The notes below the pieces were generated by a model, which did not search any database, had not been told where the DNA came from, and saw only the letters and a list, made by a program, of their open reading frames with translations. This document shows positions 2,922 through 20,938 of a stretch of 50,731 bases of DNA, one piece after another; positions within the stretch are counted from its first letter, which is position 1, and each line of letters begins with the position of its first letter. The translations under genes were made by a program, and so were the position numbers. Origin of the DNA: a phage. The stretch lies in sequence record PZ445412.1; one strand, given 5' to 3'.

Positions 2922-3589
2922 TGTTTCCCGATATGACAGAGAGCGACGTTGAAAAGGCGCTTAATGATCTTGCGGTTGATATCACTGAAAACAATGCTGA
3001 TGTAGAGGCGGCAATTGCCGCCTTTATGTTGCTGGTTTACGGGTTCGCCGTTAGTGCATACAAATACCACACTCGCCAATTTATCAGAATGGCAAAGCAA
3101 ACAGGAGGCGCAAATAATCGATCCGTTATCCTTCTGATTGGTGGCGTTTACGGAAATATGAATGAACGCTGGTTCAATTCAAAATACATAACCTGGCGAT
3201 CACTTATTGAGGCATCCGTAAGGAAATTTGCGTATAATGTGCTTGATGATTGGGAAGTACAACAGCGTTTAAATGAGTTACGCGAGCAAGCAGAAACAAG
3301 AGCACAGATCCGAAAGCGCCTAAGAAAATATAAGGCGTGGGCTAAAAATAGGGCGTCTGGTTTTGTTGGTTCATGGTATTCCGTGTTAATGTTTCAACGC
3401 GTAGTTGATGCCGGAGTTACCCATTATATTTGGCGCACTCAGGAAGATAACAGGGTTAGACCTGAACACGCGAAATTGGACATGAAGCGGATCTCATTAG
3501 CTATAAAGCACATATTCCCAGGGCAGGAATATAATTGTCGCTGTTGGGCGCAACCGGATTGGAAAACAGAGCAAGAGGTATATTTATGA
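2918..3589 (+). CDS. head morphogenesis / minor capsid protein (SPP1 gp7 / Mu F-like)
   Basis: 223-aa ORF overlapping portal stop (ATGA); position and size typical of F-like head morphogenesis protein. Confidence 0.5.
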   Translation: MMFPDMTESDVEKALNDLAVDITENNADVEAAIAAFMLLVYGFAVSAYKYHTRQFIRMAKQTGGANNRSVILLIGGVYGNMNERWFNSKYITWRSLIEASVRKFAYNVLDDWEVQQRLNELREQAETRAQIRKRLRKYKAWAKNRASGFVGSWYSVLMFQRVVDAGVTHYIWRTQEDNRVRPEHAKLDMKRISLAIKHIFPGQEYNCRCWAQPDWKTEQEVYL

Positions 3590-4695
3590 AGAAGGTGCAA
3601 CGTTTTGATAGTGTCAGAGTAAAGGCTCATTTTGATGAACATGGGTTCTTAGTGGATCGGCCTATTGTGGCGCGAATTGGTTTGCAGATTTATCAAACGC
3701 CATACGGCGAGCGCCGAGAATTCAGGCCAGCAAGTGAAGTATTTAAAGCTGATAGCCTGGCGACTTACGCAGGGAAACCAATCACAGTAGGTCACGTCAC
3801 TGTAACTCCTGAAAACGCCGAGAAGGTTGTTGTTGGATCGTGTTCCGGCGCTGGCATTCCAAATGGTGTGGGCGTTGAAGCGCCGTTAAACATTTACGCA
3901 AAACGAGCAATCGAAAGCGCAAAGAAAAAACAAACGGCTGAAATTAGCGTTGGTTATACGTCGATTGATATTGATAAGCCTGGTTATGGATCTAATGAAA
4001 CTGGTGAATACATCTTTGAAGAAGATCTAAAAGAAGATGAACAGCCACCGGAAGGATGGGTAAAATTTGATGCGCTGCAAACAAGCATTAGCGTTAACCA
4101 TATTGCGTTAGTGTTTAAGGGTCGCGCTGGCATTGCAAAATTGAATCTTGATAGCGAGCAAGAATTCCCGTATGATATCGACGTTAAATTAAATAAAGAG
4201 GACGAAGTTATGACCGTTAAAATTAAACTTGATGGTGCTGTTGAATTTGACGTACCAAAAGAAGTTGCTACTTTTATCGAAACCGTGAAAGCAGACGCTA
4301 CAGCGGCAAAAACTAAAGCCGATAGCCTGGAAGCAGAGCGCGATGCGCTACAGGCGAAAGTTGACGGCATTCCGGCGCAGATTGAAGAAGCCGTGAAAAA
4401 GGCAAAAGCTGACGCTGATGAACATGCTGCACTGGTCGCTACCGCTTCCGAAGTTGGCGTAAAATGCGACGGCTTAACAGCAAAAGAAATTAAAATCGCA
4501 TATGTGAAAGAGGTCATGGGTAATGACATTAGCGCAAAGGCTGATGCATATATTGATACCGCTTTTGATATCGCGAAAGAATCTGATAAAATGGCGGCTC
4601 AACGTATCGCATTAAAAGGCGATGCAGCAAAAAACAAACAGGATGCAGCGGAAACCGTTCTTGATCCTTCCGCGCGTCTGAATAAAGCTAAGTAA
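3586..4695 (+). CDS. prohead protease / scaffolding protein (fusion-like)
   Basis: Start MKKVQRF at 3586 overlapping upstream stop; Ala/Lys/Glu-rich coiled-coil C-terminal half typical of scaffold; lies between portal and capsid genes. Confidence 0.45.
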   Translation: MKKVQRFDSVRVKAHFDEHGFLVDRPIVARIGLQIYQTPYGERREFRPASEVFKADSLATYAGKPITVGHVTVTPENAEKVVVGSCSGAGIPNGVGVEAPLNIYAKRAIESAKKKQTAEISVGYTSIDIDKPGYGSNETGEYIFEEDLKEDEQPPEGWVKFDALQTSISVNHIALVFKGRAGIAKLNLDSEQEFPYDIDVKLNKEDEVMTVKIKLDGAVEFDVPKEVATFIETVKADATAAKTKADSLEAERDALQAKVDGIPAQIEEAVKKAKADADEHAALVATASEVGVKCDGLTAKEIKIAYVKEVMGNDISAKADAYIDTAFDIAKESDKMAAQRIALKGDAAKNKQDAAETVLDPSARLNKAK

Positions 4696-4707
4696 GGAGA
4701 AAATATT

Positions 4708-5187
4708 ATGGCTCAGATTTCAGCAAGTTATCATGTTGCAATGGCTCGTGCCTTGCCTGGTCAAGTTTCTGACACTTCCGCGTATAACATCGACGGCGCT
4801 TGTGTTCTTGATGGTGATACCGGAACAACAATTTATGTTGGCGTTGGTGTTCAACATGGCGGAATTAGCGCAAGCGGTGAGAAATTAATTAAGGCTATGG
4901 CGGCGTCTGGTAATGCTTATGGTGTTGCTATTCGATCCAACTTCCAGACCACATCTAAAGATGGTCGCATGGTTTATGAGGCTGGTAGCGGAATTAACGT
5001 AATGACTAAAGGGCGCGTTTGGATGCTATCTGTAGAATCAGAAGCGCCAGCATTCAAAACACCTATCAGACTTGACAATTCAGGACAGGTTGATTTAATG
5101 TCTGGATTAATTGAAACTACTTGGATCGCAACTGGAGACTTTACGGAATTCCAAGGTCTAAAACTCGTTGAGGTTCAACTGGTATAA
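4708..5187 (+). CDS. head-module protein, paralog 1 (possible decoration/structural protein)
   Basis: RBS AGGAGA; shares motifs YNIDG and G(R)xW(V/M) with the next ORF; followed by hairpin terminator. Confidence 0.4.
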   Translation: MAQISASYHVAMARALPGQVSDTSAYNIDGACVLDGDTGTTIYVGVGVQHGGISASGEKLIKAMAASGNAYGVAIRSNFQTTSKDGRMVYEAGSGINVMTKGRVWMLSVESEAPAFKTPIRLDNSGQVDLMSGLIETTWIATGDFTEFQGLKLVEVQLV

Positions 5188-5191
5188 TAAT

Positions 5192-5217
5192 AAGGCCGGA
5201 TTATTCCGGCCTTTTAT
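5192..5217 (+). terminator. rho-independent terminator-like hairpin
   Basis: GGCCGGA-ttatt-CCGGCC followed by TTTTAT; same stem family as 1586-1612. Confidence 0.5.
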
Positions 5218-5230
5218 ATATGGTGGTTTT

Positions 5231-5671
5231 ATGTCTGATTACGGTTCTATAATAGGTATAGTTGAAAATGGGTGCTTGGTAGATTCAAGCCTTTATAATA
5301 TAGATGGCTCGCCAGTTATGGATGTTTCAGCCGTGATAGGTAAGGCCGTATGTGTTGATCGCATATCTTGCGGTTACAAAATAATCAGCCACAATTTTAA
5401 TGAAAACTCAAAGCATTACGGAATCGTTACGCGTGATTATATGGATTTTTGCAAAGAATATTACGACGCCGGAGATCCGGTTAACGTAATAACTCATGGT
5501 CGAATTTGGGTAATCACTCAGGACGAACAGGATATTCCATCGTATAAAGATCCTGTTTTTGTTAAAGACAATGGCTCTATATCAACAAGTGGATTTCCTA
5601 CCAGTTGGTTTTTTACTGGCGAATACGTAAGATATTCACACGGATATATTTTACTATCAGTTCAGTTGTAG
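5231..5671 (+). CDS. head-module protein, paralog 2
   Basis: Start MSDYGS at 5231 after terminator hairpin; paralogous to 4708-5187 (LYNIDGSPV, HGRIWVITQ). Confidence 0.4.
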   Translation: MSDYGSIIGIVENGCLVDSSLYNIDGSPVMDVSAVIGKAVCVDRISCGYKIISHNFNENSKHYGIVTRDYMDFCKEYYDAGDPVNVITHGRIWVITQDEQDIPSYKDPVFVKDNGSISTSGFPTSWFFTGEYVRYSHGYILLSVQL

Positions 5672-5760
5672 CGTGCTAACACAAAAAACACTTGAACGTT
5701 TAACAAAAAATGCTATATTAAAGCCGTTATTATGACGGCTTTTCTATGAGGGAAAATATT

Positions 5761-6735
5761 ATGTCTAAAGAAATGAAATATGATGAATTTGAAGCAAACG
5801 TGATCGCCAACCACATGCAGTTACGCGGCGCTAAAAACGACGCATCTGATATGGGTATTTGGACGGCTCAAGAGCTTCATAAAATTAAGGCTCAAGCCTA
5901 TGAAAAAGAATATCCGGCAGGTTCCGCACTGCGTGTATTCCCTGTAACGTCCGAGCTTTCTGATACGGATAAAACCTTTGAATATCAGACTTTCGACAAA
6001 GTAGGACACGCAAAAATCATCGCTGATTACACTGATGATCTGCCAACTGTTGACGCGCTGATGACTTCTGAATTCGGTAAAGTGTTCCGCCTTGGTAATG
6101 CGTTCCTGATTTCCATTGACGAAATCAAAGCAGGTCAACGCACTGGCAAGAGCCTTTCCACTCGCAAGGCCAACGCAGCACAGAATGCGCATGATCAGCT
6201 TGTAAATCACCTGGTTTTCAAAGGTTCTAAACCGCATAAAATTATCAGCGTGTTTGATCATCCAAACCTGACAACTATCAACTCCGCAGGTTGGAACAAC
6301 GCCGCAGGTACTGGTAAAAAGCCGGAAACCGCACAGGATGAATTAGAGCAAGCGATTGAAAAAATCGAAACGCTGACAAACGGGCAGCACCGCGCTAATA
6401 TGATCCTGATTCCGCCGTCAATGCGTAAAGTTCTGATGGTTCGTATGCCGGAAACCACCATGAGCTATCTTGATTATTTCAAGCAGCAGAATGGCGGTAT
6501 CACTATTGAATCCATTTCCGAGCTTGAAGATATCGACGGCGCAGGGACTAAAGCGGCACTGGTTTACGAAAAAGATCCGATGAACATGAGCATTGAGATT
6601 CCAGAAGCGTTTAACATGCTGACCGCGCAACCTAAAGACCTGCATTTCAAAGTGCCTTGCACCTCTAAATGCACTGGTCTGACGATTTACCGTCCGTTGA
6701 CGCTTGTTCTGATTAAAGGTCTTGTAGTAGGCTGA
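5761..6735 (+). CDS. major capsid protein
   Basis: 325-aa ORF, RBS GAGGG 8 nt before ATG at 5761; strong terminator downstream; position after scaffold. Confidence 0.7.
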   Translation: MSKEMKYDEFEANVIANHMQLRGAKNDASDMGIWTAQELHKIKAQAYEKEYPAGSALRVFPVTSELSDTDKTFEYQTFDKVGHAKIIADYTDDLPTVDALMTSEFGKVFRLGNAFLISIDEIKAGQRTGKSLSTRKANAAQNAHDQLVNHLVFKGSKPHKIISVFDHPNLTTINSAGWNNAAGTGKKPETAQDELEQAIEKIETLTNGQHRANMILIPPSMRKVLMVRMPETTMSYLDYFKQQNGGITIESISELEDIDGAGTKAALVYEKDPMNMSIEIPEAFNMLTAQPKDLHFKVPCTSKCTGLTIYRPLTLVLIKGLVVG

Positions 6736-6751
6736 TAATTAAATTAATATA

Positions 6752-6780
6752 GGGAACCGTTAAAAGGTTCCCTTTTTTAT
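6752..6780 (+). terminator. rho-independent terminator after major capsid gene
   Basis: GGGAACC-gttaaaa-GGTTCCC followed by TTTTTTAT. Confidence 0.75.
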
Positions 6781-20918: not shown

Positions 20919-20938
20919 ATAGCACTTTTTGCTAAAAC
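20917..20938 (+). promoter_or_regulatory. conserved 22-bp box plus hairpin element
   Basis: AAATAGCACTTTTTGCTAAAAC; hairpin GATGCGTG-gtatacta-CACGCATC at 20949-20972. Confidence 0.6.

Follow-up and report, generated by a model that had tools for sequence, protein, structure and literature searches.

The analyzed window, a stretch of 50,731 nucleotides, is the genome of Escherichia phage DanielBernoulli (Bas08, MZ501059; Drexlerviridae, Tempevirinae, Tlsvirus) rotated by 536 bases, and a 3.6-kb region around the gene pair described here is 100% identical to this phage. The pair, termed genes A and B in the following, lies in a standard head module. Genes for the large terminase, the portal, a Mu-F-like morphogenesis protein and a DUF2213 prohead protease (3535–4695) are located upstream. 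The gene of the major capsid protein (Pfam PF09950; 5761–6735, plus strand) and a gene for a small DUF7444 protein follow downstream. A and B occupy the place expected of cement-protein genes, flanked by the prohead protease/scaffold gene on one side and the gene of the major capsid protein on the other. Gene A (4708–5187, plus strand) encodes 159 amino acids, begins with ATG and ends with a triple stop (TAA TAA TAA). Its Shine-Dalgarno (SD) sequence AAGGAG (4694–4699, plus strand), read from the letters, overlaps with the protease stop codon. Gene B (5231–5671, plus strand) encodes 146 amino acids and starts with an ATG placed 4 nt downstream of a weak SD-like GGTGG, also read from the letters (5222–5226, plus strand). 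The coding sequences match the GenBank entries bas08_0006 ('capsid decoration protein') for A and bas08_0007 ('hypothetical protein') for B. An upstream TTG start for B at position 5168 was rejected, as translation from it would have to run across the stops of A and the hairpin behind them; the relatives all start at the methionine of MSDY....

The two genes are separated by an intrinsic-terminator-like hairpin with a T-rich tail (5192–5221), which closes the block reaching from the portal gene to A. Behind B, a sigma-70-type promoter for the capsid gene (5692–5719) is directly followed by a second hairpin of 10 pairs (5720–5742), and hairpin detection revealed a further terminator-like structure after the capsid gene (6751–6773); all of these lie on the plus strand. 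The capsid start given in GenBank is the ATG at 5746, located right behind the second hairpin and devoid of an SD sequence. The ATG at 5761 is favored by an SD sequence GAGGG (5749–5753), by the annotation of phage TLS and by the alignment of other lineages.

The first-pass annotation of this region had proposed an ancient duplication of genes A and B. In a BLASTP comparison of both proteins, 143 residues could be aligned with 30% identity and 53% positives (E 7e-19), far beyond chance, and by this alignment A and B are true paralogs that arose when the gene of a head-associated protein was duplicated in tandem long ago. They share the motifs AYNIDG/LYNIDG, GINVMTKGRVWM/PVNVITHGRIWV and TGDF/TGEY (A/B) in the same order. 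All motifs listed earlier are thus present, except that the leading G of the second one is replaced by P in B. In a Hanrivervirus-like contig (IMGVR_UViG_2974632794, locus L067, 1711–3049), the 3′ end of gene A and the terminator are partially duplicated in tandem. This is either a recent event or an assembly artefact, and it shows a possible route to such paralogs.

Both proteins belong to capsid cement families. With a Pfam gathering threshold of 27 bits, A scored 83 bits against PF22758 (Phage_cement) and 56 bits against PF23982 (XM1_gp53), and B scored 53 and 90.7 bits, respectively, all above the threshold. The best family is PF22758 (structural cement protein, E217 gp24/Pam3 gp6) for A and PF23982 (XM1 gp53 minor capsid protein) for B, and both were assigned to PHROG 1989. 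The proteins of E217, Pam3 and XM1 fall into the same Pfam families, but they are myophage proteins with less than 20% identity to A or B. In a sequence search of the PDB, A matched the 158-residue cement protein of phages T1 and FCWL1 (9KZJ, 9KMG) over its full length with an E-value of 7e-43. B matched residues 14–139 of the 255-residue T1 'BIG2 domain-containing protein' gp48 (E 3e-13) and of the FCWL1 'decoration protein gp29' (E 3e-12; chains 9kzj_H/9kmh_ak).

Structure prediction pointed in the same direction. The AF2 model of A (pLDDT 86.5) reached a Foldseek TM score of 0.85 to the T1/FCWL1 cement chains. The model of B (pLDDT 77.6), in which the N-terminal 24 residues are disordered or of low confidence and residues 30–146 are confident, matched best to the N-domain of gp29/gp48 (TM 0.72). 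For both predicted models, the beta-tulip fold of the 9kmg/9kzj chains was recovered with a probability of 1.00. The next-best matches were Pam3 (8HDT) and XM1 (7KMX), and remoter ones comprised the cement proteins of XM1, Pam3, E217, TW1 and HFTV1 and the base of the phi29 head fibre. Judged by these models, A resembles T1 gp49 and B the N-terminal beta-tulip domain of T1 gp48. The suggestion that the pair encodes head-associated proteins is borne out by Pfam, PDB sequence search and predicted fold alike, and the alignment and modelling proposed as a check yielded significant similarity and a predicted cement fold in both copies. A more distant parallel concerns lambda gpD and TW1 gp56, trimers of a beta-tulip protein that stabilize the expanded HK97-fold shell at three-fold and quasi-three-fold sites (comparison from PMC11945409). 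TW1 (5WK1_K) appears as a weak fold match. Lambda gpD was absent from the PDB sequence matches of A and B (E up to 10) and from the top 50 Foldseek matches; it has no detectable sequence similarity to either protein and is a functional analogy taken from the literature. Moreover, the N-terminal arm of the T1 cement protein extends to the inner capsid surface, whereas lambda gpD does not (PMC11945409).

The intergenic hairpin consists of AAGGCCGGA-TTAT-TCCGGCCTT (5192–5213; stem 5192–5200/5205–5213) with a 9-bp stem including six G-C pairs, is followed by TTTTATATAT, and starts 4 nt past the first stop codon of A. Energy estimates for it span approx. -16 to -19 kcal/mol, with -16.3 kcal/mol in the assessment as a terminator (z = -3.9 compared to shuffled sequences). 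A GC-rich stem-loop with a U-rich tract, intergenic and co-oriented with the gene, corresponds to a predicted intrinsic terminator as already assumed from the first inspection, with a U-tract shorter than in related genera. The A-B spacer is 100% identical in eight Tlsvirus genomes. Outside this genus, 36 distinct spacers of two-paralog loci were compared, and each contains a GC hairpin with a T-run between A and B. Their stems, with energies of -11 to -19 kcal/mol, fall into at least nine unrelated sequences. The stems of 21 lineage representatives differ in sequence, and all of them fold at -10.7 to -19 kcal/mol and are followed by a T-run. At least nine unrelated stems at one place indicate that the stem-loop is maintained although its sequence changes. 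Every Drexlerviridae locus surveyed has an equivalent hairpin with a different stem sequence behind its cement gene, and this includes phages devoid of B. The spacer between terL and the portal gene contains a terminator-like hairpin as well (1584–1607; AAAGGCTGGAATATTCCGGCCTTT plus T-run), close in sequence to the one behind A. Since the hairpin also occurs in B-less phages and a similar one follows terL, it represents general punctuation of the late region rather than a B-specific device. It is better regarded as marking where the portal-to-A unit stops, with B placed in its lee. The hairpins behind terL and the capsid gene are in line with the 'transcripton' concept known from T1 and TLS. 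A hairpin within B (5274–5290; six pairs, three of them G-C) was discarded as a chance match in coding sequence.

The signals preceding the two reading frames are of unequal strength. The SD sequence of A (AAGGAG) is strong and spaced 8 nt from the start codon, and that of B (GGTGG, 4 nt) is weak. No promoter-like site was detected on the plus strand between 4592 and 5692. B therefore probably depends on read-through of the terminator, which would fit a minor subunit. The proposal that the second copy possesses start signals of its own holds for translation (GGTGG and ATG), but not for transcription, as there is no promoter-like site between the terminator and the start of B. The '21-nt direct repeat' of TLS was considered as a promoter of B and rejected: no copy is found upstream of B, and the only nearby one is inverted and lies inside the capsid promoter. 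About 19 copies of this repeat (ATAGCACnnnTTGnTAAAA) occur in the window (for example at 20919, 30607, 37999 and 43408). The copies compared with the annotation point in the same direction as the gene behind them, and each is located approx. 22 nt upstream of a CATAAT/TATAAT-like -10 element, from which it is often separated by a short inverted repeat. The inverted copy (5698–5716, minus strand) forms the spacer of the capsid promoter and is exact in T1-like phages, which suggests that one DNA-binding factor may act at two promoter geometries.

The capsid promoter itself (TTGAAC, 16 nt, TG-n-TATATT) is conserved. In Bas08 it lies right after the stop codon of B, and in every locus surveyed such a promoter is present just upstream of the capsid gene, with TTGAAC, TTGCAC or TTGACG, a 16-nt spacer and TG-n-TATATT, TATCAT or TATTAT. 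The second hairpin begins one base past the -10 element and its position is kept in most other lineages; T1-like loci contain a hairpin with a full T-run after the capsid promoter, and none reached the detector threshold in Hanrivervirus-type loci. As the predicted transcription start (about 5725–5728) falls into the left arm, we infer that the second hairpin can form in transcripts arriving from B and not in capsid transcripts begun at the promoter. It would then act as a putative terminator of B-containing read-through transcripts, and it may be the 'own terminator' that the first-pass annotation ascribed to the second copy.

The hairpin between A and B might instead be an RNA-stabilizing 3′ stem-loop or a processing site, the A:B ratio being set mainly by translation or by competition during assembly. 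Similar hairpins after terL, A and the capsid gene would be compatible with such a role, given that promoterless downstream genes still need to be transcribed. The T-tract TTTTATATAT of Bas08 is short, interrupted and the weakest in the family, and the difference between AAGGAG and GGTGG with its 4-nt spacing could by itself favor A. However, six to eight T residues follow the hairpin in most other lineages, the classical shape of an intrinsic terminator, and B is preceded there by a good GGAG SD sequence, so that translation alone would not lower B. A role other than termination thus appears possible but rather unlikely.

The closest system of known structure is the head of phage T1, and the T1-type cement pair, whose structure was published in 2025, is already known; the Bas08 pair is its Tlsvirus counterpart. 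In T1, the beta-tulip fold is found in gp49 as well as in the first 153 residues of gp48 (PMC11945409, Viruses 2025). The T=7 head of T1 carries 80 gp49 homotrimers and 60 heterotrimers composed of one gp48 and two gp49 subunits. The N-terminal arm of gp49 contacts the A-domains of two capsid proteins at the inner capsid surface, while gp48 is confined to the outside, and residues 154–255 of gp48 form a flexible Ig-like C-terminus that may aid adsorption (PMC11945409). Bas08 and T1 both belong to the Drexlerviridae and share the gene order protease, cement protein, terminator, paralog, promoter, major capsid protein. A is approx. 50–55% identical to gp49 and B approx. 30% identical to the N-domain of gp48, with the same predicted fold. 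Like gp48, B is the second cement-family gene directly 3′ of a gp49-type gene and behind a terminator. For T1 and FCWL1, trimers at three-fold and quasi-three-fold sites of the mature capsid have been seen. The first-pass annotation had suggested that the pair may represent alternative decoration. This is doubtful, as the T1 paralogs co-assemble (one gp48 with two gp49) and do not replace each other (PMC11945409).

According to a figure legend, the hexon next to the penton of T1 is ringed by four homotrimers and two heterotrimers (PMC11945409). Taken together, this legend, the number 60 (12 x 5) and the presence of five gp29 chains in the portal vertex structure of FCWL1 (PDB 9kmh) lead us to infer that the heterotrimers occupy vertex-proximal sites, which the paper does not state explicitly. 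Mass spectrometry of virions of swan01 (Warwickvirus), a phage of the same subfamily as Bas08, detected both paralogs (SWAN_00027 and SWAN_00026; PMC6563131). A primary paper on FCWL1, or on virion proteomics of a short-B phage, was not found in the literature.

Comparison within Tlsvirus revealed that A and B are exchanged jointly. Salmonella phage 36 (survey loci L029/L095) and Citrobacter phage ElisaCorrea (L027/L096) are Tlsvirus members whose protease and capsid proteins are 94–100% identical to those of Bas08. Their A proteins share just 67–68% identity with Bas08 A, and their B proteins are long (250–270 amino acids) and just 38–42% identical. The nucleotide identity to the window drops from approx. 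98% to approx. 50% between positions ~4780 and ~5681. The first boundary corresponds to codon ~25 of A, right past YNIDG, and the second lies just 5′ of the -35 region of the capsid promoter. Salmonella phages PHB07 and UTK0007 contain the phage 36 cassette at 96% nucleotide identity (cassette alone compared). From this drop in identity, the core of A, the terminator and B move as one cassette, which is exchanged for an Ig-bearing version, while the N-terminal arm of A, the arm that in T1 touches the capsid protein, stays with the shell genes. The swap also shows that bare and decorated cement sets are both accepted by the same shell. In gene A of phage Sazh (L019), the region corresponding to window positions 4810–4925 is a mosaic patch with a 9-nt insertion, the rest being 97–99% identical. 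The patch, possibly a variable loop, falls between YNIDG and the conserved YGVAIRS strand.

Joint exchange would fit A and B as interacting partners and bears on the question whether both enter the same trimers. B might remain unmixed with A, either as homotrimers at special sites or as an assembly factor outside the mature virion, for example a procapsid chaperone or placeholder. The N-terminal arm of B (MSDYGSIIG...) is unlike that of A (MAQISASYHVAMARALPG...) and is conserved among the B proteins of Tempevirinae, which would suit a separate task, and the solved structures come from phages with an Ig-bearing B (T1, FCWL1). On the other hand, the gp48 domain of T1 resides in a trimer with two gp49 subunits and FCWL1 has the same gp49- and gp48-type (gp29) proteins. 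Together with the presence of both swan01 paralogs in the virion and the coupled exchange in Tlsvirus, this makes an unmixed B improbable.

The major difference to T1 concerns the C-terminus. T1 gp48 and FCWL1 gp29 comprise 255 residues including the flexible C-terminal Ig-like (BIG2) domain that projects from the capsid, whereas the 146-residue B of Bas08 has none. B ends (…ILLSVQL) where the beta-tulip domain stops in A (…LVEVQLV) and in gp48 (…IIEVRV), and its alignment with gp48 stops at gp48 residue ~139–143, before the Ig-like segment 154–255. No more than 74 nt are left between B and the capsid gene. A Pfam profile search detected no Ig family in A or B at E-values up to 1. The idea that the duplicated proteins are Ig-like surface proteins is therefore not tenable for Bas08: neither of them carries such a domain, and B ends with the last beta-tulip strand. 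The C-terminal Ig-like/BIG2 extension is found only in relatives, such as T1 gp48, FCWL1 gp29, EC125 and swan01.

Several database labels need correction in this light. The 146-residue TLS ortholog of B (AY308796 GJGTLS_35) is labelled 'IgG-domain-containing decoration protein', an annotation error, since its reading frame stops at the end of the beta-tulip domain as in B. Likewise erroneous are the labels of phage 36 (KR296690 SP36_21/22), namely 'putative zonula occludens toxin' for A and 'scaffolding protein SbcC-like' for B. The TLS re-annotation paper treated only Gp34 (A) as a decoration protein and assigned it to an 18.5-kDa band. B, being close to A in size, would co-migrate with A on the SDS gel of TLS. 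As far as we could find, the short state of B without an Ig-like domain, which is common to several genera, has apparently not been described before.

A tblastn search detected B-like sequences in 823 phage records, nearly all of them Drexlerviridae, with 44 records at least 95% identical to B and none between 60% and 95%. A word-indexed protein search with B returned nine matches, and the mixture of short and long forms emerged from an exhaustive search of representatives. A survey of 79 IMG/VR and five GenBank loci by HMM and BLAST revealed four layouts between the protease and capsid genes. The first contains a single cement gene (Webervirus and others). The second consists of a cement gene and a short paralog of 143–168 amino acids (Tlsvirus, Hanrivervirus and at least three more groups). 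In the third, the paralog is long (250–270 amino acids; 337 for swan01), and C-termini recognized by Pfam are Ig-like, BIG2 or cadherin-like. The fourth combines the cement gene with an unrelated 481-residue collagen-repeat protein (Rogue1 type). In other Drexlerviridae, the slot between cement terminator and capsid promoter thus holds a variable surface-protein gene, which is an Ig-bearing paralog in Warwickvirus and Tunavirus and is missing in Webervirus. The B-slot proteins of Rogunavirus-type loci (Rogue1, L007 3035–4480; L056, L059, L080) contain long collagen-like G-X-Y repeats, and the 481-residue protein probably represents another type of fibre on the capsid surface. As Webervirus and many other Drexlerviridae have no B, the protein is dispensable for this capsid type.

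A neighbor-joining tree, which is rough (midpoint-rooted, no bootstrap) and was used solely for the interspersion of short and long forms and not for counting losses, placed A in one cluster with the single-copy cement proteins, and the B proteins on long branches, where short and long forms are intermingled. This interspersion indicates that the C-terminal domain was probably lost or gained repeatedly. In the loci of other genera, leaving out the Tlsvirus loci L027 and L029 with their near-identical flanking genes, identity to Bas08 was 30–49% for B, 54–73% for A, 64–81% for the protease and 75–85% for the major capsid protein. Among the head proteins compared, B evolves fastest. Nevertheless, its reading frame is intact in 44 of 44 Tlsvirus records with the short version, at a protein identity of at least 95%. 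Within Tlsvirus, pN/pS of B was about 0.23, a value from eight genomes with at most 13 substitutions, too few for a firm dN/dS. Three other short-B lineages (pS 0.16–0.5) gave dN/dS values of 0.13–0.27, similar to A. Intact frames, pN/pS and dN/dS, and the mass spectrometry of both paralogs in the long-B relative swan01 indicate that B is a live gene under purifying selection. The case of one copy being a pseudogene, which would have spoken against a functional pair, does not apply, as both reading frames are intact. That B is a decaying, functionless remnant of an Ig-bearing decoration gene on its way to a pseudogene, as its rapid divergence, its weak SD sequence, its place behind a terminator and the interspersion of long Ig-bearing and short forms might suggest, is highly improbable in view of the intact frames, the low dN/dS values, the persistence of short forms in at least five separate lineages, and the retention of the invariant family residues in a fold that is confident over residues 30–146.

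The data are best combined in a model that we consider reasonably probable as a whole, in which A and B are beta-tulip cement paralogs, B is a minor subunit in some of the trimers, and expression is graded by gene position. It builds on the homology, predicted fold, signals, conservation and purifying selection described above and extends them to putative heterotrimers, a probable capsid location of B and a stoichiometry that would be set by read-through. As in T1, A would be the abundant subunit and form trimers at the three-fold and quasi-three-fold positions of a T=7 shell, its N-terminal arm touching the major capsid protein. B would take the place of one A in a subset of trimers, probably at 60 sites beside the five-fold vertices. 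Since B consists of the cement domain only, without an Ig domain, any role would be structural rather than adhesive. A, which closes the portal-protease-A block, has a strong ribosome-binding site and precedes an intrinsic terminator, would yield much product. B, transcribed only through terminator read-through and equipped with a weak ribosome-binding site, would yield little, and the conserved promoter would restart transcription for the major capsid protein. B would thereby lie in a transcriptional shadow between terminator and next promoter and would be present in a minority of the cement trimers.

A more far-reaching version of this model is put forward tentatively. The cement domain of the minor paralog, and not its Ig appendage, would be the part under selection, with B as a vertex-proximal specialist adapting the trimer to the penton-hexon-hexon geometry. 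A conserved leaky terminator would fix the dose of B, and the unit of A core, terminator and B would be a swappable cassette recombining between the conserved N-terminal arm of A and the capsid promoter. If this holds true, phages with an identical shell could switch their surface from bare to Ig-decorated.

The core finding is ordinary and of modest interest to specialists. Corrected labels for the TLS ortholog (Ig), Bas08 B ('hypothetical') and phage 36 A (zonula occludens toxin) should be useful. The terminator-B-promoter layout and the swap within one genus offer a natural test bed for the ratios of capsid accessory subunits. Decoration that is exchangeable on an unchanged shell is relevant to phage display and to the engineering of phages of the BASEL collection. 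Furthermore, Tlsvirus and several other genera keep a minor paralog that lacks the Ig-like domain, which suggests that its structural role is separable from the proposed role in adhesion.
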